Source of the DNA: Bacteroidales bacterium
GTDB lineage: Bacteria; Bacteroidota; Bacteroidia; Bacteroidales; VadinHA17
NCBI GenBank assembly: GCA_041303415.1
Contig: JBFYPG010000187.1
Span: 9,902 to 73,901, forward strand
Direction of reading: 5' to 3'
Length of the DNA: 64,000 nt
Made by a program: the position numbers and the translations under genes. The notes below the pieces were generated by a model. That model saw nothing but the letters and a program-made list of their open reading frames with translations. It had not been told where the DNA came from and searched no databases. Below are positions 5,764-35,601 of the stretch, piece by piece (the first letter of the stretch is position 1; every line of letters begins with the position of its first letter).

Positions 5764-5768
5764 CCTTC

Positions 5769-7874: not shown

Positions 7875-10800
7875 ATGAGAGTACCCTCTTTGAAAAGGCT
7901 TGTACTGGTCACAGCCTTCTCAGCAACAGTTTTCAGCCTGTTCTCGCAGACCTTCGTTGAACAGACAGGAATATCCCTGCCGGGCATACAGCGGGGCACT
8001 GTGGCATGGTGCGACTACGACAGGGATGGTGATCTTGACATCCTGATATCCGGAGATAATCTTACCAGCATATACAGGAATGGAGGAAGCAATACTTTCA
8101 CTGAACAAACTTCAATAACCCTTGAAGGGGTATGGCAGGGTTCAGCGGCATGGGGCGACTTCAACAATGACGGTTACCCCGATATCCTGGTGACAGGCTA
8201 CAGTTCGTCAGGCGCCATTTCAAAAGTCTACCGCAACAACGGCAACAATACCTTCACCGGGCAGACAAGCATAATCCTCAAGGGGGTAGGCGACAGCTCA
8301 GTTGATTGGGGAGATTATGATGGTGACGGAGATTTGGATATTTTACTGACTGGAGACGGATATTCAAGAATATACAGCAATAACAGCGATAATACTTTTA
8401 CCTGGCAAACAGGGATCAGCCTGCGAAGTATTAGCAGCGGCTCAGCAGCCTGGGGCGATTATGACAGGGATGGTGATCTTGATATTTTATTGACCGGTTG
8501 GGATAATTCAAGAATATACCGGAATAATGGTAATAATACTTTTTCAGAACAAACCAGCATCAGCTTTATAGGAATTTCTTGTAGTTCAGTGGACTGGGGC
8601 GACTATGATAACGATGGCTATCTGGATATTTTATTGACAGGAAGCGACAATCCCGGGACTCCATTGTCCAAAATCTACCGCAACAATGGAGATAACAGCT
8701 TCTCAGAACAAACCGGTATTGGACTAACAGGAGTAAACAATGGCTCTGCGACCTGGGGCGATTATGACAATGATGGTTTACCGGACATATTATTAACAGG
8801 TAATAGTTCCGGTGGTCCGGTTTCCAAAGTATACAGGAATAACGGCAACAACACTTTTTCTGAGCTGACAGGAATAACTATTCCCGGTGTCGATTATAGT
8901 TGTGCAGTCTGGGGCGATTATAACAATGACGGAAAGCTTGATATCCTTATGGCGGGAGATACACACAGCGGCAATGTGACTAAAGTGTACCAGAACGCCA
9001 CATCAACGGCCAACAGCGCACCGGCGACGCCAACAGGACTAAACGGAGCCGCAGGCACTTCATCAGTTACATTTAACTGGAATACCGTTACAGGCGATGC
9101 AACTCCATCCGGAGGTATGAGCTACAATTTACGCATAGGTACAGCCCCCGGTGGGACAGATGTTATATCTCCCTTATCGCTTGCTTCAGGGTCAAGGCTG
9201 TTGCCCGAAACCGGCAACACCGGATTAAGTGTAAATTTTACACTTAAAAATCCGAAGAAAGCAACATTTTACTGGAGCGTTCAGGCTGTTGATAACGGGT
9301 TCAAGGCCGGTGCATTTGCTTCTGAACAGCTGGTGACTTTTTCTTCTTCTATCCAGGCTTCTTATGTATTTGCCGACAGTATCAGGGAATCGTCAATTCA
9401 GCTTAACTGGATACGGGGGAATGGCACAGCCTGTGCTGTCTTTGCAAAAAAGGACAACAGCGGTACGGCATCTCCTTCAAATGGAACCTTGTACACTGCA
9501 AACAGTGTTTTTGGCAATGGTCAGCAGATAGGATCAACCGGATGGTATTGCATTTATAACGGGACAGGATCCACTGTTAAAGTGACCGGACTGGCACCTG
9601 TTACCGAATATATCTTCCAGGTTTTTGAATACGAGGCAGGGCCTTCATATTATTCGCAAACAGGAGAGTCGAATCCCGCAGTGATCCAGACAAATGGATT
9701 TGAGGAGCAGGCCGGTATTGCGCTTCAGGGAGTTAATAACGGCTCTGCCGAATGGTTTGATTATGACAGGGACGAAGACCTGGATATCATCCTTGCAGGT
9801 GACGGTATGACAAAGATCTACAGGAATGATGGCAGCAATGTATTTAATGAACAGGTTGGAATAATACCGGAAACCATAAGCAACGGTTCGGTTTCGACCG
9901 GAGATTATAACAACGATGGTTTCCCTGATATTCTTATGTCAGGGGATGGTCCCGGTGTTACGAAAATTTACAGGAACAATGGCGGCATCTCATTCACTTT
10001 TCAGTCGGGTATTATTCTGCCCGCAATAAGCAACGGATCTGCCGAATGGGGTGACTATGACAATGACGGTGATCTGGATATTGTTATTGCCGGCAACGGT
10101 TTTATCAGGATATACCGCAATAACCATGATAACACGTTTTCGTGGCAGTCTGAAATAGAACTTCCGGGTACTGCTGAAAGCTCCACAGAATGGGGCGACT
10201 CTGATAACGACGGTGATCTGGACCTGCTTGTGACAGGTTGGAACACCACACGGGTTTACAGGAATAATGGAGATAATACCTTCACTGAAATAACAGGCCA
10301 GCCATTTCATGGGGTTTCATGGGGCTCAACATCATGGGGCGATTATGATAATGACGGATGGATCGATATACTGCTTACCGGAAACGGAGCTGCAAGGGTT
10401 TACCGTAACAATCATGATAACACATATTCATATCAGTCATCGATTATTCTGGCAGATACCTGGAACAGTTCCGGTGCATGGGGCGATTTTGACAACGATG
10501 GCTATTCTGATATACTATTAACCGGATGCTGTCCGGCAGGATCGGTTTCCAGCGTTTTCAGGAATAACGGGAATAATACATTTTCTGAACAGAAGGGCAT
10601 TATTCTTACCAGTATATGCAATGGAACGGCCGTCTGGGGTGATTATAACAGTGATGGCAGACTGGATATACTTTTATCGGGAGGTTCCCCAACCGGAAAT
10701 ATAACAAAGGTATATTCCAATTCACTCTTGAGTTCCAACGCTGTTCCGCCGGCACCATCAGGTTTGTCATCGGTTGTAAATGAAACCTCAGTTTTGCTTC

Positions 10801-13800
10801 AGTGGAATGATGTAACGGGAGATGCCACCCCGGTTAACAGTATGAGTTATAATATCCGTATCGGAACTTCACCGGGCGGCAGTGAGATTAAATCGCCTCT
10901 TTCACTCTCATCCGGCAGAAGGCTGATATCAGCAAATGGCAATGCACAATTGAATAACCAGTTCATCCTGAGAAACCTGCCGAAAGGGACTTTCTACTGG
11001 AGCGTTCAGGCTGTTGACAATGGATTTTCAGGCGGGCCGTTTGCTGCCGAGCAATCTTTTACATGGTCCGTATCAAATCCGGCTTCAGGTATAATAGCCG
11101 ACAGCATTAAAACATCATCGCTGATACTTAACTGGACCCGGGGAAACGGATCAGCATGTGCAGTGTTTGCAAAGAAAGAAAACAGCGGATCAGCCTCACC
11201 TGTCAATGGAACTGCTTATACTGGTGATCCTGTTTTTGGAAATGGCACCCAAATCGAAACAAGCGGATGGTACTGTATTTATAACGGAACAGGATCATCT
11301 GTGAAAGTCACGGGGCTTGATATATTGTCATATTACATTTTCCATGTGATAGAATATGAGGCCGGACCTTCTTATTATTCTGCTGTGGGAGAAAATAACC
11401 CTGCAGTTTTACAGACAAACGCATTTACCCTGAGATCTGATTTCACTTTCCCGAACCTTAATCACGGTTCACCTGAATGGTGCGACTATGACAGGGATGG
11501 TGATCTGGATGTGCTTCTCGCCGGTGACGGATGGTCAAAGATATATCGCAACGAAGGCGGAACTGATTTTATTGAACAGACGGGAATAGTACTCGTCGGG
11601 GTCAGCAACTGCGCCATGGCATGGGAAGATTATGATCTGGACGGTTATCCTGACATCCTGATAACCGGTGATGGACCATCCGGCCAGATTTCAAAAATTT
11701 ACAGGAACAATCAGGACAGCACTTTTTCAGAACAGGCAGGTATTGTATTGCAGGGCGTGCGAAGCAGCTCTGTTGCCTGGGGCGATTATGACAATGACGG
11801 GGACCCGGACATACTGCTTACAGGAAGCGGGTTCTCACAGATTTACAGCAATAACGGCAATAACACTTTTACATGGCAGAACGGAATAAACCTTCAGAGT
11901 ATTGATGACGGCTCGGCAGCGTGGGGCGATTATGATCGTGATGGAGATCTTGATATAGTGCTTACCGGATGGGGGAATTCAAAAATTTACAGGAATAACG
12001 GGAATAACTCATTTACTGATCAAACCACTATTTTCCTCCAGGGAGTTCACAACAGTTCGGCTGTATGGGGCGATTATAATAATGACGGCTATCCTGATAT
12101 CCTGCTGACAGGATGGGACAATATAAAGCAAATATCAAAGATATATCGTAACAATGGTGACAATACATTCACTGACCAGGCATCGATTATAATGAAAGGC
12201 ATTCAGGGAGGTGCAGCAGCCTGGGGTGACTTTGATAATGACGGATTTATTGATATCCTTCTTTCCGGCTGGAGCTCTTCGGGTAATACAACAAAAGTAT
12301 ACAGAAACAATGGAGACAATACATTCACTGAACAGACCGGAATAGAACTTCCGCAGGTATCAAACGGTTCAGTATCATGGGGCGACTTCAATAATGACGG
12401 CAGGCTTGACATATTTCTGACAGGTGCAGGGGATGGGTATAATTTATCTGCAATTTTTCAGAATAACCTGCCACAATCCAATACTGCTCCTTCAGCGCCA
12501 TCAGGGCTCTCTTCAACAACTGATGAATCATCAATAACTTTTAACTGGAGCGGCGTTACAGGTGATGCCACACCTCCGGACGGAATGAGTTATAATGTCA
12601 GAGTGGGAACAACACCCGGCGGCAGCGATGTGGTCTCTCCCGTTTCGCTGGCATCGGGAACACGTCTGATCCCGGTATATGGCAATGCCAGGTCAAATTA
12701 CAAATTTGTCCTGAAAAATCCTGAAAAGGCAACTTATTACTGGAGCGTACAGGCAATCGATAATGGTTTCCTGGCCGGTGCTTTTGCTGCTGAACAGTCT
12801 GTAACATTCTCATCTCCTCTCCAGGCTTCGATGTTGTTCACTGACAGTATCATGCCGTCGTCGTTAAAACTTAACTGGACCCGGGGTAACGGAACAGCCT
12901 GCGTTGTATTTGCAAAAAAAGCAAACACAGGCACTGCAGCACCGGCAGATGGCACATCATATACCGCCAATAGTGTGTTTGGCAGCGGTTCTCAGATACT
13001 CACAAGCGGATGGTACTGTGTTTACAACGGGTCAGGGACGAACGTGAAAATCACGGGACTGGAACCGTTAACATATTATATTTTCCAGGTAATCGAATAT
13101 GATTCGGGCCCTGTCTATACTACAATAACAGGTCAGAATAATCCTGTTGTACAGCAGACAAACGCATTCACAGAGATAACAGGGCTGACAATCCCGGGGG
13201 TTAATAACAATTCAGCAGCATGGTGCGACTATGACAGGGACGGCGACCTTGACCTGCTGACTGCAGGTGACGGAATTACAAAGATTTACAGGAATGAGGG
13301 CAGCGATACTTTCAATGAACAGAGCAGCATAGTTCTGACCGGAGTATCTAACAGTGGTCTGGCCTGGGGTGACTATAATAATGACGGTTATCCCGATATA
13401 CTGCTGACAGGCGATGGCCCCTCGGGACCTGTTTCAAAAGTTTACCGCAATAACGGGAACAATTCTTTTACCGAACAGACAGGAATTACGCTTATGGGAG
13501 TAAGCAACAGCTCCGTGGCATGGGGCGACTTCAATAATGACGGGCTGTCAGATATACTTTTATCGGGACATAATAATACCGGAAACGGTATTACAAGGAT
13601 ATACCGGAACAATGGTGATAACACATTTACCTGGCAGGAGAGCATAGTACTGACAGGAGTCTCGGAAAGTTCGGTTTCGTGGGGCGACATTGATAATAAC
13701 GGATTTTCCGATATTCTCGTCAGAGGCTGGGGCGGCACAAGGCTATACCGCAACAACGGCGATAATACTTTCACAGAACTGTCAACTACAAACTGGAAAG

Positions 13801-16800
13801 GAGCAAGCTGGGGATCATCATCGTGGGGAGACTATGATAACGATGGCTGGCTCGATCTTCTGCTTACCGGTGACGGGTATACCTATGTCTATTCAAATAA
13901 CCGTAATGGATCTTTTTCAGAGGTGACAAATGTGGTTCTTGACCAGGTATGGCAGGGATCAGGAAGCTGGGGCGATTTTGACAACGACGGGTATGCTGAC
14001 ATACTCCTTAGCGGTTATACATCAACCACCAGTATAACTAAAGTGTACAGGAATAATGGTGATAAAACATTTACATATCAGCCGGGGATCGCCCTCACAG
14101 GTATCGGAAACGGCAACGCAATCTGGGGTGACTATAACAATGACGCGAAACTTGATATATTCCTTATTGGTAACAACGCCAACGGCAATACTGCCAGACT
14201 GTTTAAAGGGGGGATGCCAACTTCAAATTCCTCACCATCAGCACCTTCCGGGTTATCCGCAACTGCAAACGAGGAATCCATAATCTTCAGATGGAACAGG
14301 GTGGCCGGTGACGCTACTCCCGCGAAGGCAATGAGCTATAATGTGAGGCTGGGGACAACGCCGGGCGGAAGCGAAATAGTATCTCCGATGTCGCTGCCGG
14401 CAGGCAAAAGGCTGGCGCCTGATCCCGGAAATGCATTTGCCGATACCCTTTTTATATATAAGAATCCCCCGAAAGCGACTTATTACTGGAGCGTGCAGGC
14501 GATAGATAACGGGCTGTCAGCAGGTCCGTTTGCATCTGAACAATCCATTACATATTCCTATTCCGCCCAGGCATCGCATGTTTCTGCCGACAGTATCAGG
14601 GCTCTCGACATGGTTATAAGATGGGTCAGGGGAAATGGCAGCGGCTGTGCAGTGTTTGCAAAGCAAGGAAGCAGCGGCACAGCTTTGCCGCTTAACGGAA
14701 CTTCCTATGCTGCCGATCCGGAATTCGGCAACGGATCACAGATCGGCACAAGCGGATGGTACTGTGTATACAACGGGACAGGCACAAATGTAAGAGTGAC
14801 AGGGCTTGAGCCTGCTACGACATATATTTTCAGTGTTGTTGAATATGAGCCAGGCCTGGCTTATTATACATCAACAGGAGCTGACAATCCGGGTATTATC
14901 AGGACTCACCTTTTTGCCGAACAGTCCGGAATAACCCTGCCCGGTATAGGGAACCGTTCATCCGTTTCATGGTGCGATTATGACAGGGACGGAAATCTTG
15001 ATATCCTGCTCACGGGAGATGGAATTTCAAAGATCTACCGGAACGAAGGCAGCGGGTCCTTCATCGAACAGACAGAAATAATCCTTGAGGGTGTGTGGGG
15101 AGCAGCCTCGGCCTGGGGCGACTATGATTGTGACGGATATCCTGACCTTCTGATAACTGGCTGGATAAGTGCAGGTTATAATGCTTCCCGGATTTACCGT
15201 AATAACGGTAACAATACTTTTACATGGCAATCTTCAATCGCACTTATAGGTGTGGGAAACGGAGCAGTAGCCTGGGGCGACTATGATAACGACGGCGATC
15301 CTGATATTATTCTTACAGGCAGCAGATATTCAAAAATTTACAGAAACAACGGGGATAATACTTTTACTGAACTTACCGGAATCTCACTTTATGGAGTGGA
15401 AGTAAGTTCGGTGGAGTGGGGAGATTATGATCTGGACGGCGACCTTGATATTCTGCTTTCAGGACAGACTTCAAGTAACGGAATGACAAAGCTATTCCGG
15501 AATAACGGTGATAATACCTTTACCGAGCAAAACGGAATTGAATTTAACAGAACAACCGATGGTTCTGCTGCCTGGGGTGATTATAACAATGACAGTTATC
15601 CCGATGTCCTGGTAGCAGGCTGGGGGAACTCTTATCTATACAAAAATAATGGAAATAATACTTTCACATGGCAAAGTAATATTGTGACAGAGGGAATCCA
15701 TCAATGCACTGTGAACTGGGCCGACTATGACAATGACGGCTTACTTGATGTTCTGCTGACAGGAAATGATAATAATAATAACCTGATATCAAAAGTATTC
15801 AGGAATACCGGCAGCAATAGTTTCACTGAGCAAATTGATATAGTTCTCAGGGGTGTCAACCGTGGAAGTGCGGCCTGGGGTGATTACGACAATGACGGGA
15901 AGATTGATATACTCCTTACAGGCAATACAACTTCCGGGAACATAACACGGATTTACAAAAACTATACTGCTTCAGCAAATGCAGCGCCTCCTGCTCCGGC
16001 CGGATTATCTGCAGTTGTCAATGAATCATCCCTTGTATTCAGGTGGAACAGGGTTTCAGGCGATGCCACTCCTGCAAAAGGGATGACATACAATATCCGT
16101 ATCGGAACGGTTCCGGGCGGCAGCGATGTTGTTCCTCCGATGTCCTTATCATCAGGATCACGCCTTATTCCATGGGTTGGAAATACAGGGAGTGATACAT
16201 TGTTCATACTTCGCTATCCTGAAAAGGCAACTTATTACTGGAGTGTTCAGGCTATTGATAACGGTTTGAAAGCAGGCGCTTTTGCCTCAGAGCTGTCAAT
16301 TGCGTACTCTTCACGGATCCAGGCTTCCCAGGTTGCGGCCGTGAATGTTGAGGCAAACATTCTCAGGCTCGAATGGAGAAGGGGAAACGGATCAGCCTCC
16401 GCTGTATTTGCTAAGAAAGGAACTACAGGAACAGCACTTCCTGCTGACGGAACAACCTACAGCGCTGACCAGGTATTCGGCAGCGGCAACCAGATAGGAA
16501 CATCGGGCTGGTATTGTGTTTACAACGGCACATCATCAGGAGTGAATATTTCCGGGCTGGAACCACTTACAAATTATATCTTCCATGTAATAGAGTATGA
16601 TCCGGGTCCATCGTACTATACTCAGACCGGTCAGGCAAATCCGGCTCTGATTATGACAAACGTATTTTCCAGGCAAACCGGTATTTCACTGCAGGGCGTC
16701 TCGGGCAGTTCGGTTGCATGGGGTGATTATGACGGTGACGGTGATCCTGATATACTTCTTACCGGCTATAAATTAAATAACGAAAGAATCTCCAGGATAT

Positions 16801-19800
16801 ACCGCAATGACGGAAGCAATACGTTTACTGAACAAACAGGTGTTTATCTTCAGGGTGTGCAGAATGGCTCGGCTGAATGGTGTGACTATGATAATGACGG
16901 GGATCTCGATATTCTGATTTCAGGTGAAGGGATATCAAAAATTTACCGTAACAATGGCGCCGGTTCATTCTCTGAACAATCAGGTATTGTTTTCCCCGGA
17001 ATGAATCAATCTTCAGTTGCCTGGGGAGATTATGACAATGACGGTTTTCAGGACATTCTTCTTACTGGTCACAATTCAAACTGGATTACCATTTCAAAGA
17101 TCTATCGTAATAACGGCAATAATTCATTTACCGAACAATCGGGCATAACTCTGCCTCCCATGGGCAATAGTACAGTTGCTTGGGGCGATTATGACAATGA
17201 CGGATACCGGGATATCCTGCTGGGTGCCTATAAGATCTATCATAACAACAGCGATAACAGCTTTTCTGAACTGACCGGTGTCGATCTCTATGGATTGAAT
17301 GAATCTTCAGTATCGTGGGCAGACTACAATAACGACGGATTCCTCGATATATTTATCACCGGCTCCTCAAATGCAGAGTCGTTTGCAAAACTTTACAGGA
17401 ATAACGGTAACAGCACTTTTACAGAAGAATCAGGGTTAAATATTAAAGGGATTTACCAGGGATCAGCAACCTGGGGAGATTTTGACAATGACGGCAATAC
17501 CGACCTTCTGTTAACCGGGGGAGGTCTGGTAAAAATTTACCGTAACCAGGGTAATAATACTTTTGCGGAGTATCCCGATCTCCTGCAGGCCGGACTTCAG
17601 AACTCTTCTGCTGCATGGGGTGATTACGACAATGACGGCAGACTCGATATCCTGCTGTCAGGCCAATCGGGGAGCGGATATATTACAGCAATCTACAAAA
17701 ACGTTGCAGGGTCAGTCAACACCGCACCTGAAGCTCCCATTGAACTTTCATCATCAATCGATGAAACATCGATAGTATTCAAATGGAACCGGACCACCGG
17801 AGATATCACTCCCGGGAAGGGAATGAGTTATAATGTAAGAGCCGGGACTAATTCCGGAGCAGTTAATACGATCTCTCCGATGTCCCTGTCATCCGGAGCC
17901 CGTCTTATCCCGGCCATGGGTAACGCCTTTTCCGACACTCTTCTGGTTCTCAGGAATCCTAAGAAAGCTAATTATTATTGGAGTGTGCAGGCAGTCGACA
18001 ACGGATACAAAGCAGGAATGTTTGCAGCCGAGCAGTCGGTAACTTATGCTCTCTCGGTGCAGGCATCTAATGTTTTTGCCGACAGTATTAAGACCACGGC
18101 CCTGAAACTGTACTGGACAAGAGGAAACGGATCCGCATGTGCAGTATTTGCCAAAAAGAGCGACAGCGGAACAGCATCACCTGTCAATGGTACTGTTTAT
18201 AATGCTGATCCGGTCTTTGGCAGCGGATCACAGATTGGCTCAAGCGGATGGTACTGTGTTTACAATGGCATTAAGAATTATGTTGTTGTTACAGGTATTG
18301 AAGCTGCTGTTGGTTATATATTTCATGTAATAGAATATGAAGCAGGTCCTTCATATTACACTCAGACAGGACAGTCGAATCCCTTTATGCTTCAGCCATC
18401 CATTCTTTCCGAACAGAGCAGCATTTCTCTCGCGAATTTGGGGAACGGCGCTTCTGTTGCCTGGGGCGACTATGACAATGACAATGACCTGGACATACTT
18501 ATTACAGGCGATAATCAATCACTTATTTACAGGAACGACGGAAGTAATATCTTCACCCAGCAGAACGGGATCACTCTTCAGGGTATTTGGCAGGGTTCTG
18601 TTGCCTGGGGCGATTATGACAATGACGGTGACCTTGATATTCTTTTATCAGGAGCAATTAATACCGGTTCTGTATCCAAAGTATACAGGAACAACGGCAA
18701 TAATTCATTTACTGATCAGACTGATATAATATTGACAGGTTTGTCGAGCTGTTCGGCAGCCTGGGTCGATTTCAATAAAGACGGTCGTCTGGATATTTCA
18801 CTGGCAGGTAATGGTAATTCGGGTTCCGTGACCAGCCTTTATCGCAATGACGGGAATAACCTGTTTACCGGACTGGCGGGATTTGGAATTCCGGGATTAA
18901 GCAGCAGCTCAATTGCATGGGGAGATTACGATAACGATGGTTATCCTGATGCTTTAGTATCGGGAAACAGTCCTGAGGGAACAATTTCGAGGATCTATCG
19001 CAATAATGGCAACTCGACTTTTACATGGCAGGAAGGTATCAGCCTTTCAGGGATAAATGATGGTGCAGTAGCATGGGGTGATTATAATAACGATGGCTTG
19101 CAGGATATTCTGATATCCGGGAACGGAATATCCAAGCTCTACCGTAACAATGGCAATAACACCTTTTCGGAGCAGACAGGAATACAACTGGAGGGTCTCA
19201 GTAGTTCATCGGCTGCCTGGGGTGATTATGATAATGACGGCTACGCTGACCTTATTCTCACAGGATGGACGAACACCAGTAAAGCTGTCTCAATACTCTA
19301 TCACAATGATGGGAACAACACTTTCTCCGAAAAGACTGATGTTTATCTTACCGATGCGAATGATGGTTCGGCGGCATGGGGTGATTATAACAACGATGGC
19401 AGGCTTGACCTTTTACTTTCAGGAACGGATGAATACGGTGCACGGTTTACCCGGATATTCCGAAACTACGCTCCCATAGCCAATGTTCCACCTGCTGCAC
19501 CTGCAGATGTTTCAGTTACGGGCACCAGTACCTCACTGATCCTTCACTGGGAAGGTGTTGAAGGCGATGCCACCCCTGCCGGAAGCATGAATTATAATGT
19601 CAGAATTGGTACTTCCCCGGGCGGCTCCGATATTGTCTCTCCTATGTCGCTCCACACCGGATCGCGGCTTTTACCGAAACATGGCAATGCATGGTCTGAT
19701 ACTCTTTTCATCCTGAATACTCCGGCAAAAGCAACATATTATCTGAGTGTTCAGGCAATCGATAACGGATTTGCCGCCGGTCCTTTTTCAACCGAACAAA

Positions 19801-22800: not shown

Positions 22801-25800
22801 CAGGCACGGTACAGGGCGGGTCTTATGGCAGCATGGTAAGGTTCTTCAGTAATAACAACGACAACAATTTTACTGAAATGCCTGAAATTGTCCTGCCCGG
22901 GATCTATAATGGTACTGTTAAAGCCGCTGATTACAATATGGATGGCAACCTGGATTTAGCAGTCTCGGGATTAGACCTCAATAACTTTCTCTATTCCGGA
23001 TTATTCCTGAACCGCAGTTCCGTTGCAAATGATCCGCCGCCTGCACCGTCAGGGCTTACTGCGGCAAGTGATGAAACATCCCTGACATTGAGCTGGATGA
23101 GAGTTACGGGCGATATAACACCTTCAGGCGGTATAGGGTATAATGTAAGGATTGGAACCTCACCGGGAGGTACTGAAATAGTTACACCTATGGCTCTCTC
23201 ATCGGGGGAAAGACTTATTCCGGTGAACGGAAATTCGGGATCAGATACTGTTTTTGTTTACAGGGCTCCACGTAAAACAACCTATTACTGGAGTGTCCAG
23301 GCTATTGATGATGCTTTCAATGCTGGTCCGTTCTCTGCTGAGCAAACATATACTTACTCTATCTCGGTTCAGGCATCTCAGGTTGCCGTGGAAAGGGTTG
23401 AAGGTTCCGGTATTAACCTGAAATGGACAAGGGGAAATGGTACCGGTTGCCTTGTGTTTGCAAAGAAAGGATCTGACGTGTCAGCATTACCGGAGGAAGG
23501 CACGACTTACACTGCCGGTGCGTATTTCGGCAGCGGCTCACAGATAGGCACCTCAGGCTGGTACTGCGTTTACAGCGGTACCGGAAGCAGTGTGGCAATT
23601 TCCGGACTCGAATCGCTTACAACATACACCTTCCATATTGTGGAATATGATCCGGGCCCGGTATATGATACACGAACAGCAGCCGGCAATCCGCTGATTA
23701 CCGAAACCGGATTGTTCGATGAGCAGACTGGCATAGTTCTCCAGGGTGTTTCACAGGGATCAGTCGCATGGGGCGATTATGACAGCGATGGTTACCCTGA
23801 TGTCATAGTAACCGGTAGCGGATATACAAGAATCTACCGCAATAACGGCGACAATACCTTTGCACTGACTGTGACCCTGCCGGGAGTATTCAACAGCTCT
23901 GCAGCCTGGGGCGATTATGATAATGACGGCGATATCGATATAATGCTGACCGGAAGCTCATCATCGCGTATTTACCGCAATGACGGGAGCGATACGTTTA
24001 CCGAACTGCCAGGTGCAGGCCTGACCGGAGTCTCATCAGGTTCATCTGCCTGGAACGATTACGACAGCGACGGAGATATGGATATACTGCAGACAGGCCG
24101 CCTGAGCTCCGGCGAGGCTCTTTCCAGGATATACCTTAATAATGGGAATGGTACATTTACCGGTCAGCCCCAGATAAGCCTGCCGAACGTATTTTACAGT
24201 TCGGCAGCCTGGGGTGACTACGACAATGACGGGTTATCTGATATCCTCATTACCGGTACAACAAATGGATCATCATCAGGGGCTCTTTCAAAGATATACA
24301 GGAATAATGGTGATAATACCTTCAGTGAACAAACGGGTATTGTTCTTCCCGGAGTATATTACAGTTCATCAATATGGTTCGATTACGATGCCGACGGCGA
24401 TCTTGATATTCTGCTGACAGGTAATACCGTCAGCCAGTCATTATTGCCTGTTTCAAAGATCTACCGGAACAACGGCGAGAACAGTTTCACTGAACAGACC
24501 GCGATAAATCTCACGGGTGTTTACCAGGGATCAGTTACCTGGGGCGACTTCAATAACGACGGTTACGCTGACATAATTCTTACAGGAAAGAGTGCGGCCG
24601 GTGAATTTATTTCAAAGGCTTATCTCAATAACGGGGAAAATAACTTCACTGAACAGAAAAGCATTGTGCTGCCCGGTGTTATAAACAGCTCAGTTCAGAT
24701 GAGCGACTATGACAGGGATGGCAGGCCTGATCTTCTGGTTTCAGGCCAGGCATCTTCAGGATTAATATCCGGGATACACCGAAACATGTCTGCTGTACCG
24801 AACAGCCCGCCGCTTCCTCCTGCCGGACTCTCCGCACTTGCAACTGAAAACGCGCTTGTCCTTAAATGGAACAGGGTTACCGGCGATGTTACTCCCGATA
24901 AGAGTATCACATACAATGTACGCATCGGGACTTCCTCAGGAGGAACTGAGGTTGTTTCTCCAATGGCGCTTGCATCGGGATCATCTCTGATACCATATCC
25001 GGGGAATGCAGGGGAAGATACGGTATTCACCCTCCGGTATCCCCGGAAAGCCACTTATTACTGGAGCGTTCAGTCAGCAGATAACGGCTTAATGACCAGC
25101 CCATTCGCTGCAGAACAGACATTTGATTACACAGTGTCAGTCCAGGCATCCCAGGTTTACGCAGGCAATATACAGGGATCAGGTATTGACCTCACGTGGC
25201 GAAGAGGGAACGGATCATTCTGTGCTGTTTTTGCAAAAGAGGGAACCTCAGGAATTGCTGCTCCGGATAATGGGGTGACATACACTTCAAGCCAGGTATT
25301 CGGATCAGGATCAGAGATCGGAACTTCAGGATGGTTCTGTATTTACAGCGGGACGGGAAATAAAACCCAGGTCACAGGCCTTCAGCCTGTCAAATCATAT
25401 ATTTTCCAGGTTATTGAATTCGATGCGGGACTTTTATATTACACTCAGTCGGGCCAGGGCAATCCGGTTGTTGTCCGAACAGGCTTATTCTCTATGCAGA
25501 CAGGCGTGACGATACCGGGTGTAGTAAACGGTTCAGCTTCATGGGGCGATTTTGACAATGACGGCGACCCTGATATCCTGATAACAGGAAACTCGGCTTC
25601 AGGAAGACTATCAAAGATATACCGGAACAATGGCGATAATACTTTTACCGAAAATACCGGTGTTACACTCCCTGTGATAAGCAACGGATCAGGCGCATGG
25701 GGCGACTACGACAATGACAGGGACCTTGACATCCTGCTGACCGGAACCACAAACGGTACTGCAGCAGGCGCCCTTTCAAAAGTATTCAGGAATGATGGCG

Positions 25801-28800
25801 GCGGGTTATTTACCGAACAGCCGTCAATAATTCTTGAAGGGGTCTATCACAGCAGTGCCGCCTGGGGCGATTATGACAATGACGGATGGACCGACATACT
25901 TTTAACCGGCACAACCGATGGTTCTTCATCAGGAGCTGTTTCGAGGATATACCGCAATAACGGGAATAACACTTTCACCAAACAGACCGGGATAGAGCTT
26001 CCGGGTGTCTATTACAGCTCTGCAGCATGGGGCGATTATGATAACGACAATGATCTTGATATTCTGATAGCCGGGAACCAGCTTTCAAGGATATACCGCA
26101 ACAATGGCGACAACACATTCACCGAACAGTCAGGCATAACACTCCCCGGTATCAGCGGCGGATCAGTCGCCTGGGGTGATTACGACAACGACAGTGACCT
26201 CGATATACTGATAACCGGATCTTCCTTATCAGGAAACAACTCAAGGATATACAGGAATAACGGGGATAACACATTTACAGCACAGACTTCAGTCAGTCTG
26301 ACCGCAGTCTCAGGCAGCACGGGAATATGGGGAGATTACGACAATGATGGTCTCACTGATATTTCAATAACAGGAAAGGCAGGAGCGACTTCGGCTGATA
26401 TCATCACGAAATTCTACCGGAACATCGGGAACAACTCCTTTGCCGAGCAGCCAAACCTCAGCCTTGAAGGGATTTATCTCAGCTCATTTGCCTGGGGTGA
26501 TTATGACAATGATGCAAAACCCGACATACTGCTTACAGGCCAGAACCCGGATTATACCCCTGTTTCCAGGATCTACCGTAACCTTTCTTTGACGGCAAAT
26601 ACTCCTCCTGCAACTCCATCAGGATTGCTTACAGTCATCAGCGATACTTCCGTGTTGTTTACCTGGAACAAGGCAGCCGACGATGAAACACCTTCTGGAG
26701 GGTTAAGTTATAACATCCGGATCGGCTCATCCTCTGGCAGCGACGATATAGTGGCATCAATGTCGCTTACTGCAGGGAAGAGGCTCGTTCCGGGTACAGG
26801 TAACGCCCAGACAGGTACTTCATACCTGCTTAAATACCCGAAGAAGGAGACATACTTCTGGAGTGTTCAGGCAATCGACCAGGGATTTCTTGCAGGAGCT
26901 TTTTCCGAAGAGAAATCATTCAGCTACACAGCCTCAGTGCAGGCACGGATGGTATTTGCCGATAATATCCGCCCGACATCAGCCGACCTTCACTGGCATC
27001 GCGGAAACGGATCAGTTTGCACGGTTTTTGCACGGAAAGGCAGCAGCGGAACCGCAGTACCTGCCGACGGTACGACCTATAATGCCGGCAGTCAGTTTGG
27101 TACCGGATCACAAATCGGCACAACGGGCTGGTTCTGTGTGTATAACGGTACCGGGAATAATGTCAGCATAACAGGCCTTGAGCCAATGAACAATTACATC
27201 TTCCATGTAATTGAATATGAGGAGGGGCCTCTGTACAACATACTGAAGGGTCAGGGTAACCCGCTCATGATACAAACTGACCTGTTCCTCGAACAAACCG
27301 GAATTAAACTGAATGCAGTCAGCAGCGGATCGGCTGCCTGGGGGGATTATGATAATGATAAGGACCTGGATATCCTGCTGACCGGAAGCGGAATTTCAAA
27401 AATATACAGGAATAACGATAATAATACTTTTACAGAGCAGACAACGATCACCCTGCCTGGAGTAACCAACAGTTCTTCGTCCTGGGGTGATTATGATAAT
27501 GACGGGGATCTTGATATCCTGCTGACAGGAGGAAATATTTCCAGGATATACAGGAACAATTCTGACAACACCTTCAGTGAACAGTCTGCAATAATGCTGC
27601 CCGGGGTTAGTTACAGTTCATCAGCCTGGGGCGATTCCAATAATGACGGCTTCCCGGATATTCTGCTTACAGGCCGCCTGGCCAGCCAGGATTATTTCTC
27701 CGGGATATACCTGAATAACAGGAATAACACTTTTACCGAACAGACAGGAATCCTGCTTACAGGAGTGAACAACAGCTCTGTTGCCCCGGGAGATTATAAC
27801 CATGACGGCTATCTGGATATTTTAATGACAGGAAACAGCACATCAGGTCCTGTTTCGAAAATTTACCTTAATAACAGGGATAATACTTTCACTGAACAGA
27901 CCTCTGTAAGCCTTGAGGTGGTGGCTTACAGTTCTGCTTCCTGGTGCGATTATGACAATGATGAAGATCTTGACATATTGATCACCGGCAACAGTATTTC
28001 AAAAGTGTACAGGAACAACGGTGACAATACCTTTACCGAACAATCAGGCATTATACTCCAGGGAGTTGCCTACAGTTCGTCGGCGTGGGGTGACTTTGAC
28101 AATGATGGTTATTCAGACATTCTTATAACCGGCACAACTGACGGAGCAGCTTCAGGTGCGGTTTCAAAATTCTATCGCAATAATGGTGATAATACATTCA
28201 CCGAACAGACAGGAATAAATCTTACCGGCGTTTACAACAGTTCTGTTGCCTGCGGCGATTATAATAATGACGGCAGCCTGGATGTTCTTCTGGCAGGGAC
28301 CACTGCAAACGGACAAAATATCTCAAAGGTCTATGCCAACTTCACTGAAAATACCAGGCCGGTGCCGGTTAAACCGGAACTCATTTCAAGCACTGTTACT
28401 GATACAACCATTGTGTTCAGATGGAAGAAGCTGAGACAAGATAACATTCCTGTGAAAGGGATAAGTTATAATATCCGCATGGGAGAATCTCCTTCATCAA
28501 GCAATATCCTGTCTTCAATGACATTGCCATCCGGATTGCGGCTGATACCAGCCAGAGGCAATGTGGGGTCGGATACCATCTTTGAGCTGCGTAACCCAAG
28601 AAGGGCAAACTACTACTGGAGTGTTCAGGCGATCGATAACAGGTACGGTGCAGGGGAATTCTCAACTGAGCAGTCATTTAACTTCGGCAACTGGATGCAA
28701 GCTACATATCTGGTCGCCAGCGATATCCAGGCATCCAGGCTGACTCTTAACTGGACAAGAGGCAACCTGAGCGATTGTATTGTGTTTGCGAAAAAAGGGA

Positions 28801-31800
28801 ACCGCGGGATGGCTCAGCCAGAGGTTGGCCGGCCTTATGATGCAAATTCAAAGTTTGGAAACGGCACTCAGATAGATACAACCGGATGGTATTGTGTATA
28901 CAGGGGACCCGATAACAGTGTTACAATCTCAAACCTTGAATCGCTGACAGAATATATTTATAATGTAATTGAGTGCGACGGGGCAACGAGCTACTTCAAC
29001 TTTGATGGCAGGCAGGGCAATCCATTGGTTGTCAGAACCGGGACATTTACTGAAATGAATACCATAAGCATCTATGGCATAAGGAATGGTTCCATTGCCC
29101 CGGGAGATTATGATAATGACAGTGACATGGATGTTCTGGTAACAGGCAACGGAACTTCAAGGATTTACCGGAACATGGGCAATAATATTTTCGCCGCGCA
29201 AAATGCTATTATACTTACCGGAATATCAAATGGATCTTCAGCCTGGGGTGATTACAATAATGATAATTACATTGATATACTTATCACCGGGCTTTCAGCC
29301 GCCAATATTTCTGTCTCGAAGATCTTCAGGAACAACGGCAACAATACATTTACTGAACAGACAGGAATAAATATCCGGGGAGTATCCGGCAGCTCGGCTG
29401 CCTGGGGCGATTATGATAATGACGGATACACTGACCTTATAATTACCGGAAAGTCAGAAGCCAACGATTATATCTCAACCATTTACCGCAACAACAGGGA
29501 TAACACATTCACGGAGCAGACAGGCATTTCATTCCCGGGAGTCTGTTCCGGGTCGGTAGCATGGGGTGACTATGATAACGACGGCGACCTGGATATCCTG
29601 CTTACCGGCTTTAACAACAACAACATACCTGTTTCAGGGATTTACCGTAACAATGGCGATAACTCATTTACCGAGATGACAGGCATCGGCCTTAAGGGCG
29701 TTGCGAGAAGCTCTGTTGACTGGGGTGATTATGACAACGACGGCGACCTCGATATAATTCTGTCAGGAGAGTCAGGAACAAGCGTTGTAGAGTATATAAC
29801 CAGGGTCTACAGAAATAATGGCGACAGTACCTTTACCGAACTGAACAGCGCCCTGCTCAGGGGAGTACATTCAGGATCGGTCGCCTGGGGAGATTACGAC
29901 AGCGACGGATTATCAGATATCCTGCTTACAGGGTACTCGGGCACAATCGAAAGCCAGTACTGCTCAGCCGTGTACCGGAATAATGGCGATAATTCATTTA
30001 CAGAGCAGCCGGGAATAAACCTTCTGAAGGTCTATAACAGCTCCGTAAAATGGGCCGATTTTGACAAAGACAGTAAGCCTGATATCTTCCTGGCAGGGTA
30101 TAATCCCAATTATGGTTCTGTCACAAGGATATACCGGAATCAGTATCCGAAACCGAACAATAGGCCATCGCCGCCTGCCGGACTCTCAACAACCAGCGAT
30201 GAAACATCACTGATCCTGAGCTGGGATATCGTTCCCGGCGATGAGACACCCGGGGCCGGCATGAGCTACAACGTGAAGATAGGAACATCTCCGGGATCGG
30301 GTGATGTTGTGACAGGGATGGCACTGACCTCAGGCTCAAGGCTTGTTCCTGAACCAGGGAATGCCCGCAACGATACGTTATTTATACTTAAATACCCGCA
30401 AAGGGCAACCTATTACTGGAGTGTTCAGGCTATTGACAACGGCTTTGCACCCGGACATTTTGCAGCAGAACAATCATACATGTTCACAACCCTGCTTCAG
30501 GCATCAAAGCTGTTTGCCGACAGCATTCAGGTTACGGCCCTTACACTTCACTGGAACAGGGGCAACGGAACCGCCTGTGCTGTTTTTGCCCGTAAAGGCA
30601 GCGGAGGAAATGCAGTGCCTGAAAACAATACTGATTATACGGCAAACTCAATTTTTAGCTCAGGATCACAGATCGGGACAACGGGTTGGTACTGTGTCTA
30701 TAACGGCAGTGGCAATAAGGTCAGGATCACCGGGCTTGAACTTCTCACAGATTACACATTCCAGGTTGTGGAATATGACCCGGGTCCGCTGTATTTTACA
30801 CAGACAGGCCAGGGCAATCCGGTCGTTGTTCAAACCAGTATTTTCTCAGAGCAGACAGATATCAGCCTTACCGGATTATCATACGGATCAGTTGCATGGG
30901 GCGATTACGACAACAGTAATTACCTCGATATACTGATCACGGGTACGGCTTCCGCAACATATTCAGGAGCTGCAGCTAAGATTTACCGCAACAACGGTAA
31001 CAATACTTTCTCCGACCAGGTAGTGATCAGTCTTCCCGGTGTCACAAACGGTTCTGCGCTCTGGGGCGATTATAATAATGATGGTTATACGGATATTCTT
31101 CTGACCGGACTTGATATAAACAATACATCAGTTTCAAGGATTATCAGGAACAACGGCAATAATTCCTTTTCCGAACAGACCGATATCAGCCTGGCAGGAG
31201 TCAGGGAAAGCTCAGCAGAATGGGCAGATTTTAATAATGATGGCAAACTCGATGTAATTATTACCGGAACTTCAGCTTCGGGTAATGTGACAAAGATTTA
31301 CAGGAATTCAGGGGCAAATCTCTTCAGTGAACAGCAGGGATTAAACCTGCCCGGAGTAACAAACGGCTCCGTGGCTTGTGCTGACTACGACAACGATGGC
31401 TTTACTGACATACTGCTTACTGGTTCCGGATTATCGAGGATATACCGTAATGCCGGCAACCCCTTTATGATGGAGTTTACGGAACAGCAGGGAATTGATC
31501 TGCCCGGGGTTACCAAAAGCTCGGCGGCATGGAGCGACTACGACAGCGACGGTGACCTGGATGTTCTTCTTGCCGGATACGATATTACAGGTAATATTCC
31601 GGTTTCTAAGATATTCAGGAATAATAACGGAGAATTCGAAGAATCGGGCATAATACTCATTGGAGTAGCGGGATCTTCAGTTGCCGACAATTCAGTAGCC
31701 GGGGCCAGCGAAACAATCTGGGGCGACTACGACAACGACGGTGATCCGGATCTGCTCCTGACAGGGGAGACCTCTTCAGGGCGAATCTGCAGGGTATACA

Positions 31801-34800
31801 GCAATAATGGCAACGGCACTTTCAAGGACCAGTCAAACTTCAGCCTTCCCGGAGTGAGGTACAGCTCAGCAGCCTGGGGAGACTATGATAATGACGGCGA
31901 CCTTGATATCATTATTTCCGGAGAACAGGGTACTTCGCGCATCACAAGGATCTTCAGGAACGAGATTCTTACATTCAACACTATCCCCGAGGTACCTTCA
32001 GGCCTCGGTGTCAGCGCCGCTGCGCCGAATACAATACTTTACTGGAACTCAGTCAGAACAGATGAGACTGCTTACAGAGGATTGACTTACAACATCAGGA
32101 TGGGAACAACTGCAGGAGGCAACCAGATAATACCGGCAATGTCGTCAGCTTCAGGCAAAAGGAGAATATCAGCAATGGGGAACAGCCAGCTTGATACATT
32201 TTTCGTGTTCCAAAACCTGAAGCCGGGAACCTATTACTGGAGTGTTCAGGCAGTGGACAACGGATTTGCCGGAGGCGCTTTTGCGGAAGAGAAAAGCTTT
32301 ACCATCGACAGCATCCAGGCCAGCAGGCTTGAAGGCAAACTGGTGACCGCAAACAAAAACGCCCTGCTGATAAAATGGAAGAATGGAAACGGAGAGCGCC
32401 GGGTAGTGTTCTGTAAGCAGGGATCAACAGGACTGGCTCTGCCGTCAGCTAATACCACCTATTCTGCCGATAACATATTCGGCTATGGCGATCAGATAGG
32501 GACCACCGGGTGGTACTGCGTATTCAATGGCAGAGGCGACAGCACAATAGTTACAGGGCTTTCACAGGGAATACCTTATTCATTCCATGTGGTTGAATAT
32601 GTCGGGAACACAGGATCAGAGATCTATTACAGGTCATCCGGAGAAAATAATCCGGGGATATTCTCCTGCGGATTATTCTCAGAACAATCAGATATTGAGC
32701 TTGATAAGGTATACAACAGTTCAGTTACATGGGGTGATTATGATAATGACGGAGACCTGGATATTTTACTAACAGGGAACAATTATCCTGAATCAGAATC
32801 AACGGCGATATCAAAAATATTCCGGAATAATGGAAATAATTCATTCACCGAACAGACCGGAATAAACCTGTTCGGCGTGCAGAACGGATCAGTGTCATTC
32901 GGAGACTATGACAACGATAACGATCTCGATATCCTGCTTACGGGACTTACTGAAGGCGCTTTCCCTGTTACAAAGATCTACCGGAACAACGCCAATAATA
33001 CTTTTACCGAACAGATAGGGATCAGCCTGATCGGAGTAAGCTATTCATCAGCAGGCTGGGGTGACTTTAACAATGACGGCTGGCTCGATATTCTGATTAC
33101 CGGCCAGGGAGCAGGATCAAACCTGATCTCAAAAGTCTACAGGAATAACCGCGATAATACTTTCACTGAACAGGTTGAAATAAACCTTGAACACGTTGCA
33201 AAAGGCTCCTCTTCGTGGAGCGATTATGACAACGACGGCGACCTGGATATTCTGATCACAGGAAACAACCTCTCAGGATCGCAAAATTCGGTTTCCATGG
33301 TCTATGCCAATAACAGCGACAGTACCTTTACACATCTGGACAAGACAGTTCTGCCGGGTGTTATGAACAGCTCCGCATCATGGGGCGATTACGATAATGA
33401 CGGCGATCCTGACATACTTCTGACAGGATATAACAATGAAGGCACAGTAGTCTATCTGTCAAGGATTTACAGGAACAATGGCGACAGTACATTTACCTGG
33501 CAGTCCGGAATCAAATTGGAGGGTGTTGCAAACAGCTCTGCCGCATGGGGCGACTTTGATAATGACGGAGATCTTGATATATTGATATCAGGCCGGCTTG
33601 TTAACGGCGGGTATACAACAAAAATTTACAGGAACGACAGAATTAACATATTTGCGGAAGTAACTGATATAACATTTACCGGTGTCGGTTACGGTTCGGT
33701 TGTATGGGGTGATTATGACAATGACGGGGATATAGATATTCTTATGACCGGGCAGAGCGCCGGCTCAACCGTTGTTACAAAGATCTACCGCAACAACGCA
33801 ATTATGAAGGCTGGTGATTACCAGTCTAACAGGAGGGCTGAAGCGCCGGCAAACCTAACAGCAGTGCGTCTTCCTGAGGGTATTAAACTATCATGGTCGC
33901 CGGTAAGGGCAGATGAAACACCTCCGGGGGCGATGACATACAACATTAATATTCAGCCTGAGGCTGGTGGATTGCCGGCTATGTCTGCCCTGGCCGATAC
34001 CGTCACTGGATATCGCAGGATTGTTGCGATGGGTAATGTCCAGACTGATACAACTTTCCTTATAAGGAACCTGATCCCCGGTAAATACCGCTGGAAAATA
34101 CAAGCGGTTGACCAGGGTTACAGGGGAGGCCAGTGGGCGATTGGTCCTGTGATCAATGCAAAGAATGTCCAGGCATTCTTTGATGCCGATACAGTTTGCA
34201 GGAAACAGGTAACCGGGTTTACAAACCGTTCGACGTCTTTCAGGGATCCAATACTCACGTATTCATGGGATTTCGGCGACGGAACTACTGATGATACGGA
34301 AGATGCGGTTCATACCTACACTACTTCGGGAACCCACACTGTAAGACTGGCAGTCTCTACAGCATTTGACACCGATACTTTGTTTAAGGAAGTTTACATA
34401 TACCCTGTCCCTGTCATTGATTTTTCAACGGAAGGATTATGTGAAGGTGTTGAAACCGTGATCAGTAACCTGACAGTCACAACAGGATTTACAATCGACA
34501 GATGGAACTGGGATTTCGGCGATGAACGTGAGTCTTCGCAGAAGAATCCGGGATCACATAATTACCTGAATTCAGGCAATTACTCAATGACGCTGATTGC
34601 AGAGACATCAAATGGCTGCGTCGATTCAACGCAAAAAAACATTACTATTGCAGATGCCCTCCCGGAACCGGCTATCTACGCAAAAGGCCCGAAAGTCTGG
34701 TACCTTGCCAGCAGCAATGATACAGCGAAATATTACAGATGGTATTGCAATTATGAGCTTATCGATGGCGCTGATAAGAATGTATATGTAGCGAACAGGA

Positions 34801-35162: not shown

Positions 35163-35601
35163 AGGTGCTTGTTGCTGGTTGCTTGTTGCTGGTTCCCTTT
35201 GAATTTTGAGTCTACTCCGAAAAGTTTTTTTACCACCAAGGCTCCAAGGCACAAAGTTACTCCAAGAATAAGTCATTGAAAGATAAACTCTTGGTGAACC
35301 TTGGTGTCTTTGTGTCTTCGTGGCAATTTTATTATTTGGATTTATCTGGAATTTGGAATCTGAAATCAAACAACCACGGAGACACAGAGTGCACGGAGAT
35401 ACACAGAGTCGCCTCTTCCCGCCCTCTCGCCCTCCATTGTCCGCCGAAGTCCCGAGTACTCGGGACGAAGGCGGATCCCCATCTCCCCATCCTTCTTCTT
35501 CGTCCCAACTTTCTCTGCTTTAGTCAAATAAGTCGGGGTTCATTTGCTTTTAACAGGGATTTTGAGTAATTTTTCTATTTATTTTGTTAAACCTGATTGA
35601 G
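35163..35601. repeat. Repeat-rich spacer between the two giant paralogues
   Basis: There is a tandem 14-mer GCTTGTTGCTGGTT x 2 (35167-35194, heptad-periodic TTGCTNG). The words CACCAAGG/CCTTGGTG and CACAAAG/CTTTGTG occur on both strands (35232-35323). There is a tandem CACGGAGA(C/T)ACACAGAGT x 2 (about 35384-35420). The stem CCGCC-GAA-GTCCCGAG-TA-CTCGGGAC-GAA-GGCGG (about 35441-35474) has a perfect 8-bp palindromic core. Confidence 0.7.

Follow-up and report, generated by a model that had tools for sequence, protein, structure and literature searches.

We analysed a stretch of 64,000 nucleotides, referred to below as the window, from contig JBFYPG010000187.1 (positions 9,902 to 73,901, forward strand; assembly GCA_041303415.1) of a Bacteroidales bacterium in the VadinHA17 lineage. 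On its forward strand, a giant open reading frame (ORF) at 7875..35162 remains open over 27,288 nt without interruption and encodes a protein of 9,095 amino acids, which comprises a putative signal peptide, 15 propeller modules, two PKD domains, a beta domain and a type A C-terminal sorting domain (CTD) for type IX secretion (T9SS). Judged by its sequence, this is the gene, of about 27 kb, of a secreted surface protein that is T9SS cargo. A sequence-only reading of the same DNA had proposed that the array grew by duplication of whole modules, that length and divergence rise from 5' to 3', that the 5' modules are either younger or homogenised by gene conversion, and that selection keeps exactly seven blades in each unit. 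The comparisons presented here support whole-module duplication and a younger 5' end, and they argue against recent homogenisation.

All features of the giant protein are encoded on the forward strand. A putative N-terminal signal peptide (MRVPSLKRLVLVTAFSATVFSLF..., 7875..7943) was recognised by eye from a basic n-region followed by a hydrophobic core. The modules (M1 to M15) then follow one another directly, each consisting of a propeller and one or two FN3 domains, FN3-A and FN3-B, for totals of 15 propellers, 15 FN3-A and 14 FN3-B. Thirteen of them are of a type we call A and are given here with propeller, FN3-A and FN3-B in that order: M1 at 7944..9689 (7944-9005, 9006-9341, 9342-9689), M2 at 9690..11414 (9690-10730, 10731-11066, 11067-11414), the M1-like M3 at 11415..13157 (11415-12473, 12474-12809, 12810-13157), M4 at 13158..14906 (13158-14219, 14220-14555, 14556-14906), M5 at 14907..16655 (14907-15971, 15972-16307, 16308-16655), M6 at 16656..18398 (16656-17711, 17712-18047, 18048-18398), M7 at 18399..20159 (18399-19475, 19476-19811, 19812-20159), M8 at 20160..21917 (20160-21233, 21234-21569, 21570-21917), M9 at 21918..23705 (21918-23021, 23022-23357, 23358-23705), M10 at 23706..25478 (23706-24794, 24795-25130, 25131-25478), M11 at 25479..27275 (25479-26591, 26592-26927, 26928-27275), M12, with divergent FN3 domains and an atypical linker, at 27276..29036 (27276-28349, 28350-28685, 28686-29036) and M13 at 29037..30833 (29037-30149, 30150-30485, 30486-30833). 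M14 at 30834..32666 (30834-31970, 31971-32306, 32307-32666) is of type B, and its fifth blade is 11 aa longer, a conserved feature. The terminal M15 at 32667..34175, of type C, has a propeller (32667-33812), a 6-aa linker insertion and FN3-A alone (33813-34175), after which the chain passes directly into the PKD domains.

The two PKD domains occupy 34176..34649 (34176-34412 and 34413-34649; Pfam PKD_4, E 1.6e-25, and PKD, E 5.2e-14). They are followed at 34650..34904 by a beta-rich domain, delimited by sequence comparison, for which no family match was found and which also precedes the CTD of a paralogue downstream. The T9SS type A CTD lies at 34905..35159 and matches Pfam Por_Secre_tail (E 8.3e-15) and, over the last 78 residues, TIGR04183 (45.3 bits against a cut-off of 23). 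The giant protein has no transmembrane segment.

In the first 975 aa of the giant protein, Pfam FG-GAP_3 matches with E 8.2e-122 (398 bits, cut-off 26.9) over 13 stretches, and FG-GAP matches with E 6.7e-32. The propeller is predicted to be seven-bladed, of the FG-GAP/VCBS, integrin-alpha-like kind, with a predicted Ca2+ loop of the DxDxDG type in nearly every blade. AlphaFold2, given an alignment of 18 window modules and 10 database homologues, predicts for M1 seven four-stranded blades and then two beta-sandwiches, with a predicted local distance difference test score (pLDDT) of 92.8 and a predicted template modelling score (pTM) of 0.89. The best match of this model to the PDB in Foldseek is CRTAC1 (9etn, E 7.5e-13); the seven-bladed Ca2+-binding fungal lectins PVL (2bwr) and AAL2 (4tqm) match with TM 0.54-0.57 on the target, integrin alpha heads also match, and FN3 tandems (1fnf, 1qg3, contactins) do so at E 1e-7 to 1e-9. 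Identity of M1 to any solved structure is 14-22%, and by sequence only CRTAC1 is detectable (E 4e-5). The fn3 family (PF00041) was not reported in those first 975 aa, where the FN3-like Pur_ac_phosph_N reached 20.4 bits, below its cut-off of 30; fn3 is detected in the downstream paralogue (E 7.6e-12).

That paralogue is adjacent (35602..42771, forward strand) and has three modules of seven blades each (P1 to P3), two PKD domains, about four Ig_7 repeats and a T9SS CTD; P1 and P2 have both FN3 domains and P3 only FN3-A. In a protein database search, none of the best 120 matches exceeded 1,019 aa, so that no giant orthologue was among them, and single-module proteins with the unit of propeller, FN3 and FN3 were found. 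A scan of GTDB species genomes with an alignment of the FN3 pair returned 79 loci, mostly in metagenome-assembled genomes (MAGs) of Bacteroidales and Bacteroidia. The best relative lies on JAPLDX010000048.1 of the MAG Bacteroidia bacterium LacPavin_0920_SED3_MAG_41_20, from Lake Pavin sediment, where three loci (L001, L005 and L022) together span about 30369-61373. This orthologue has 17 modules of seven blades each (R1 to R17) in 10,263 aa, and a three-module paralogue (Q1 to Q3) follows it.

Blade register and the unit of duplication

The FN3-A landmark [YF][YF]WSVQA occurs 15 times in the giant protein, and the spacings reported earlier were reproduced to the base (1725, 1743, 1746, 1752, 1740, 1764, 1758, 1788, 1773, 1797, 1758, 1800, 1821 and 1854 nt). 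The blade anchor D-x-[DNS]-x-[DNS]-x-x-x-[DN] is found at exactly 105 sites, seven in each module and none beyond the last landmark. Nearly all blades (103/105) conform to D-x-[DN]-x-D-x-x-x-D, and 84/105 to the strict form D-x-[DN]-x-[DN]-G-x-x-D, a putative cation-binding loop. The rule of exactly seven blades per unit holds for 15/15 propellers of the giant gene, 17/17 of its orthologue and 3/3 in each of the two three-module genes, and among untruncated runs of at least four blades in other genomes it holds for 106 of 138. Most of the shorter counts in those genomes probably reflect anchors missed by the pattern. Eight blades were counted in five cases elsewhere; three were checked and turned out to be false regex matches to an FN3 motif, SDDTSVTLQWN in L002 and L003, the count in L057 comes from an unrelated repeat, and another is in L049. 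We infer purifying selection against propellers that lack seven blades. The full unit of seven blades and two FN3 domains is found as described in modules 1 to 14; M15, with only the first FN3, departs from it.

Blades also carry marks of the slot they occupy. Blade 1 reads WCDYDRDG[DN]LD in modules 1, 3, 4 and 5 and WFDYDRDEDLD in module 2, and the arginine of DYDRDG is found in slot 1 of 5/15 modules against 3/90 blades in other slots (Fisher p=0.0013). A lysine or arginine in blade 7 is present in 11/15 slot-7 blades, in the same 11 modules listed earlier, against 2/90 elsewhere (p=4e-10). Both signatures are therefore real and the strings are as first quoted, with the restriction that the blade-1 signature belongs to modules 1-5 only.

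Module proteins are 42-61% identical to one another, in a matrix that is nearly flat at about 50%; M1-5 are slightly more alike (52-61%), and M14 and M15 are the least similar to other modules (42-49%, against about 50-61%). The 105 blades are likewise all about 50% identical, at 51.5% within the same slot, 49.7% within the same module and 49.7% where neither is shared. The same-slot excess is small, yet it was matched by none of 2,000 permutations of slot labels within modules. When nearest neighbours were taken from information-weighted matches in the final alignment, the closest blade lay in the same slot of another module for 45/105 blades (14 expected) and in the blade's own module for 3/105 (6 expected), a count that ranged from 3 to 7 across tests and was never above chance. 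Same-slot neighbours make up 24/35 in M1-5 (4 expected) and 21/56 in M6-13 (7 expected), and in the orthologue 70/119, including 41/49 in its young 5' modules. With orthologous pairs averaged, the figure is 51/84 (11 expected), slots 1 and 7 each contributing 12/12; the slot signature is strongest in these two slots and weaker in the interior ones. The FN3 pair is interleaved between propellers at a constant 121 + 116-117 aa. Since blades do not cluster by module, the proposal that the duplication unit was the whole module, seven blades with both FN3 domains, stands, and the sequence comparisons support it.

Among the first five modules, the parts of the unit do not all group alike. In the propeller (9690-14906), M2 groups with M4 (bootstrap 91, or 71 together with R3 and R6), and M1, M3 and M5 are alike (7944-16655); in FN3-B, M1 pairs with M2 (70%), unlike the propeller grouping. 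This discordance hints at duplication of a two-module block followed by recombination.

Ancestry and age of the array

Comparison with the Lake Pavin gene gives a sharply diagonal matrix of module identity over a paralogue background of about 50%, with M1-R1 at 71%, M2-R3 at 67%, M4-R6 at 68%, M5-R7 through M13-R15 at 59-71%, and both M14-R16 and M15-R17 at 75%. Neighbour-joining trees recover 13 orthologous module pairs at bootstrap 90-100, and M4/R6 to M15/R17 are collinear, one to one. By pair, support is 95-97 for M1 and R1, 90-91 for M2 and R3, 99 for M4 and R6 and for M5 and R7, 98 for M8 and R10, and 100 for M6 and R8, M7 and R9, and each of M9 to M13 with R11 to R15. M15 and R17, the root of that tree, are mutual best matches and reach bootstrap 100 in the propeller tree. 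M3 has no unambiguous orthologue, and its barcode of blade lengths is that of R2. Blade-unit lengths are identical in 12/14 orthologous modules, the M14 insertion is kept almost letter for letter in R16, and the linker that is atypical in M12 is also atypical in R14. The two loci differ in module number, the extra modules of the Lake Pavin gene being M1-like and at the 5' end, and in the upstream neighbour, which is a different paralogue there.

Fragments in two further MAGs labelled Rikenellaceae hold clear orthologues of M9, M10, M11, M12, M14 and M15, and all five complete copies match their counterparts here in length (596, 591, 587, 611 and 611 aa). Among the scanned loci, the 596-aa orthologue of M9 lies in L006, another of M10 in L007, and others of M12 in L009 and L010. 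The 5'-type modules of the Rikenellaceae MAGs could not be assigned to individual modules. In the Lake Pavin orthologue, a single in-frame TAA stands at the FN3-A/FN3-B junction of module 13 (...EEKTFVF*ASVQAQ...), flanked by 7,591 and 2,743 codons of open frame; a sequencing error, a recently formed pseudogene or a true gene split could each explain it.

A short segment of FN3-B, G[SNA]E, distinguishes the modules further. It is present in 12/12 outgroup modules, in P1, P2, Q2, M14 and R16, and is absent from all of M1-13 and R1-15 and from Q1. Because M1-13 lack what M14 and the outgroups keep, these sequences show that M1-13 go back to a single founder, recognisable by a 3-aa deletion in FN3-B, and that M14 lies outside the expansion with the ancestral segment. 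M14 and R16 group with Q2 (bootstrap 96-100), and M15 and R17 with Q3 and P3 (bootstrap 92). Features of single domains run the same way: M14, P1 and P2 have the 3-aa insertion in FN3-B in common, and M15 and P3 both lack FN3-B and both carry the QAVDQGY motif and the 6-aa insertion in the linker. By these sequence characters, M14 and M15 are older, distinct module types (B and C) and not the decayed end of a gradient.

The same unit recurs in three-module FG-GAP/FN3/PKD T9SS genes of Bacteroidales, among them the downstream gene at 35602..42771 and L012, L013, L014, L016, L017, L021 and L023, and many other MAGs have three-module genes with a type C third module. As in the giant gene, FN3-B is missing from their terminal module, PKD-PKD and a T9SS CTD come after it, and it is with their second and third modules that M14 and M15 group. 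They differ in having 3 modules rather than 15, in keeping the G[SNA]E segment lost in M1-13 and, in some, in extra Ig_7 domains before the CTD. The paralogue at 35602..42771 represents the ancestral three-module plan.

Within the expansion, growth points to the 5' end. Trees with outgroups give nested clades of {M1-4, R1-6}, then with M5/R7 added, then with M6/M7 (bootstrap 90/76/66), and the outgroup joins near M11/M12; M11 is also often the best match of outgroup modules. The difference between 15 and 17 modules falls among M1-3 and R1-5, the extra modules having M1-like barcodes. R1-R6 are 63-70% identical to one another and mosaic in sliding windows: the propeller of R1 is up to 90% identical to that of M1 within a window, and its FN3 domains are closest to those of R2 (71-77%). 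Such mosaicism fits old unequal crossovers in register. The earlier suggestion that the 5' modules are younger is borne out by the nested clades and by the finding that module number varies between the genomes only in this group.

The reported increase in length along the gene is real (landmark spacing, Spearman rho 0.91, p=7e-6). Propellers account for all of it, lengthening from 338 to 370 aa; every FN3-A of modules 1-14 measures 121 aa, and every FN3-B 116-117 aa apart from the 120 aa of M14. Blade units of about 48, 52-53 or 55 aa result from variation in the loop that follows the ...LLTG strand. The gradient is an ancient, conserved feature of these loops and not ongoing drift, and polarising it with outgroups failed, the P modules having long loops but Q2 three short blades. 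The divergence gradient needs revision: M14 and M15 are indeed the least similar modules, but the trend is not smooth. Propellers have no positional trend in mean identity to other modules (rho -0.17, p 0.54), and in the FN3 domains, which diverge most in M12, M14 and M15, the trend hinges on these three modules and lacks significance within M1-13 (p 0.14 and 0.064). Relatedness falls modestly with distance along the array (Mantel r about -0.36, p about 0.002). The view that modules 12-15 deviate most is right for 12, 14 and 15 and wrong for 13; both of its examples, PVPVKPELIS in module 12 and the VAGSSVADNSVAGASETIW insertion in module 14, are present. Because later gain and loss are confined to the 5'-most M1-like modules, we take the apparent gradient to be phylogenetic nestedness, with the youngest copies at the 5' end, plus a 3' end made up of two non-A modules; neither decay nor homogenisation is responsible.

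Other readings of these patterns can be weighed against the data. Selection could depend on position, all modules being equally old and the cell-proximal 3' ones faster or differently constrained, as the divergent FN3 domains of M12, M14 and M15 and the lengthening of propeller loops toward the 3' end might suggest. Between species, however, conservation does not change consistently with position (rho 0.37, p 0.2), and M14 and M15 are the most conserved, for which reason the mutual similarity of the 5' modules points to more recent ancestry and not to slower evolution; loop lengths are frozen between orthologues, and the indels and clades that M14 and M15 share with modules of the three-module genes also make positional selection quite unlikely. 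It is very improbable that each propeller arose separately from a single blade, or was homogenised within itself, with a convergent count of seven. Blade amplification is documented in VCBS propellers (PMC9218822) and the blades here are about 50% identical regardless of slot or module, but same-module identity equals the background, same-module neighbours number 3-7 where chance predicts 6, against a same-slot signal of 3-7 times chance, and the FN3 pair recurs at constant length between the propellers, so that this reading is refuted.

Concerted evolution, in which conversion or unequal crossover homogenises the 5' modules and the gradient records how recently, would account for the somewhat greater likeness of M1-5 and for the likeness and mosaicism of R1-R6. 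A GENECONV-like scan found its longest in-register run of matching polymorphic sites, 24, between M3 and M5; with a naive permutation p of about 0.01 it is borderline, and we did not accept this single run as a conversion tract. In codon alignments, nucleotide identity between modules is 46-68% over the three domains (53-62% in propeller DNA), synonymous divergence (dS) is undefined or above 1-2 for most pairs, and nonsynonymous divergence (dN) is close to 0.42 in each domain. At conserved residues, four-fold sites are about 33% identical between paralogues and 28-47% between orthologues, against 26% for random sequence, and those among M1-5 (26-39%) are no higher than in other pairs. The longest exact DNA string common to any two modules is 32 nt, and a DNA repeat search found copies only 60-75% identical. 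Orthologues (59-75%) are closer than paralogues (about 50%), and for M1, M2, M4 and M5 the nearest module is in each case the orthologue (66-71%; bootstrap 90-99) and not a paralogue. The idea of recent 5' homogenisation can thus be rejected for this genome on its sequence, and concerted evolution as the source of the pattern is unlikely, being largely refuted for recent events. Saturated synonymous sites mean that the duplications are old, and also that dN/dS cannot be used to compare propeller with FN3 parts. The same divergence bears on whether module number and order could come from misassembled repeats. Related MAG contigs with such genes are often short fragments; here, however, copies with at most 32 shared bases are too divergent to collapse or mis-join, the frame is open throughout, and an independent MAG repeats the order and lengths of the modules, so we give an assembly artefact next to no weight.

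The downstream gene and other surroundings

The ORF call of the downstream paralogue starts at a TTG at 35584, and the ATG at 35602 (MKRILLK...) is the likelier start. The spacer between the two genes (35163-35601, 439 nt) holds a perfect tandem 14-mer, TGCTTGTTGCTGGT, in two copies at 35166-35193, an 18+18-nt near-palindrome at 35440-35475 and a 26-nt inverted repeat at 35308-35333 and 35364-35389. Scans for sigma-70 consensus promoters and intrinsic terminators around the giant gene and in the spacer found none, which is uninformative, as expected for Bacteroidota.

The neighbouring genes include ABC-2 permeases, a Reg_prop/Y_Y_Y/SpoIIE regulator, a caspase-CARDB protein and MutL, and they indicate a chromosomal, Bacteroidota-like setting. 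Upstream on the reverse strand, 2503-7601 encodes a 1,086-aa Reg_prop/Y_Y_Y protein with a SpoIIE (PP2C) phosphatase domain and a 610-aa caspase-like Peptidase_C14 protein with a CARDB domain. Further downstream, also on the reverse strand, 46386-48527 encodes a protein of 713 aa that has a Peptidase_S74 intramolecular-chaperone domain at its C-terminus and, in its N-terminal part, weakly matches the Bdellovibrio 'mosaic adhesive trimer' fibre family; it is adjoined at 48548-49048 by a gene for a 166-aa protein that has little beyond a T9SS type A sorting domain. Within M13, a 197-aa TTG-initiated ORF in another forward frame (30343-30936) is most likely a chance overlap.

Many FG-GAP propeller proteins in the database (e.g., P0004, P0006 and P0014) are named 'predicted nucleotidyltransferase' by JGI. 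The only counterpart we saw to that name is a match of PF01909 to 33690-33761, in the propeller of M15, at 20.7 bits. The name looks like an annotation artefact, since this match falls below the cut-off of 21.

History of the array and its relation to known systems

We think it likely, taking the explanation as a whole, that the giant gene grew from a three-module ancestor by amplification of its A module and that its product is a Ca2+-stabilised fibre exported by the T9SS. The ancestor would have had the plan [A][B][C]-PKD-PKD-CTD, a plan still seen in the downstream gene and in numerous MAGs of Bacteroidales. Amplification would have been limited to the A module, always as a complete propeller with both FN3 domains, to 13 copies here and 15 in the related MAG, probably by unequal homologous recombination between modules in register; M14 would be the B module and M15 the C module. 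The order of M4-15, with their individual blade-loop lengths, already existed in the common ancestor with the Lake Pavin MAG, and later gain and loss were confined to the 5'-most M1-like modules. After export, the C-terminus may be anchored to the outer membrane, as in known T9SS type A cargo, and because of that anchoring the labile N-terminal modules would lie at the distal tip. Recognition of carbohydrates is typical of VCBS propellers (PMC9218822), and giant-gene surveys and giant surface proteins offer an analogy for an adhesin role (10.1101/2023.11.21.568195, PMC12863079). By analogy of this kind, the chain may project as beads on a string, with a length that we roughly put at about 150 nm, and the giant protein is probably a Ca2+-stabilised, multivalent adhesin or lectin-like fibre.

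Several observations weigh against this account or limit it. The trees are neighbour-joining trees of short, saturated alignments that do not resolve the relationships among M8-M13; a clade of M1-8 with M13 gets 100% support with one set of taxa and 15% with another (23/150 after outgroups were added), and we do not claim it. M2/R3 and M3/R2 break the collinearity. Q1 has the deletion of type A and clusters with modules of the giant genes, and P1 keeps the ancestral segment (merged L001/L005/L022, positions 36285-41864, against window 35668-37461); because of this difference, modules appear to have passed between the two neighbours, which leaves the plain [A][B][C] scheme incomplete. An AlphaFold2 model of two modules has pLDDT 82 and pTM 0.57, against a pTM of 0.89 for one, which suggests that the single module is a rigid unit and that the junction between modules is not confidently fixed and may be flexible, but the alignment behind it was shallow (14 sequences) and a low pTM is weak evidence for flexibility. 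Among the scanned ORFs of the window, no gene of the T9SS machinery (PorK/L/M/N, Sov, PorU/V) was found.

A bolder and more doubtful extension of the fibre model is that the fifteen propellers are ordered, individually specialised binding heads, forming a positional multi-lectin or multi-ligand fibre with about 13-15 distinct specificities and with the N-terminal, distal end as its sole evolvable growth zone; they would then be neither exchangeable spacers nor the units of a merely repetitive adhesin. What suggests it is that each module keeps its blade-loop barcode and its position despite saturated synonymous sites. Independently of that idea, 15 differentiated seven-bladed propellers offer a natural series for studying the determinants of blade number and loop length. 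The array also carries a caution for reading by eye, as an apparent gradient along a repeat array can mix phylogenetic nestedness with non-homologous end modules.

The closest structural kin of the module belong to the VCBS/FG-GAP supercluster (PF13517, PF01839), a propeller family described previously (PMC8023676, PMC9218822, PMC3192720) that likewise has seven four-stranded blades with DxDxDG-type Ca2+ loops. Compared with this supercluster, the giant protein has fifteen propellers in one chain, each followed by FN3. Its likeness to integrin alpha is confined to the propeller: integrin alpha continues into thigh and calf domains and a transmembrane helix and pairs with a beta subunit, and the giant protein has instead FN3-like domains and a T9SS CTD. 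SprB of Flavobacterium johnsoniae is, as the giant protein is predicted to be, a surface protein of several thousand residues exported through the T9SS by means of its C-terminal sorting domain. SprB has a type B CTD and different repeat types, whereas the CTD here is of type A (TIGR04183) and no link to gliding is indicated.

Domain arrays commonly grow by tandem duplication, and growth by whole-unit duplication is ordinary for giant adhesin-like genes; the component domains are all known. With giant repeat adhesins (RTX/LapA-type, Bap-type and Ig-repeat proteins), the giant protein has in common a very long secreted chain of tandem modules, Ca2+ motifs and a presumed part in adhesion. It differs in its predicted export, through the T9SS and not a type I system. 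Many of these adhesins have near-identical repeats whose number varies between strains. Here, modules share about 50% identity, each is conserved from species to species, and their number holds steady apart from the 5' end. They offer a clean case of a very long array that is not homogenised, conserved one to one down to blade residue counts, with turnover only at the 5' end.

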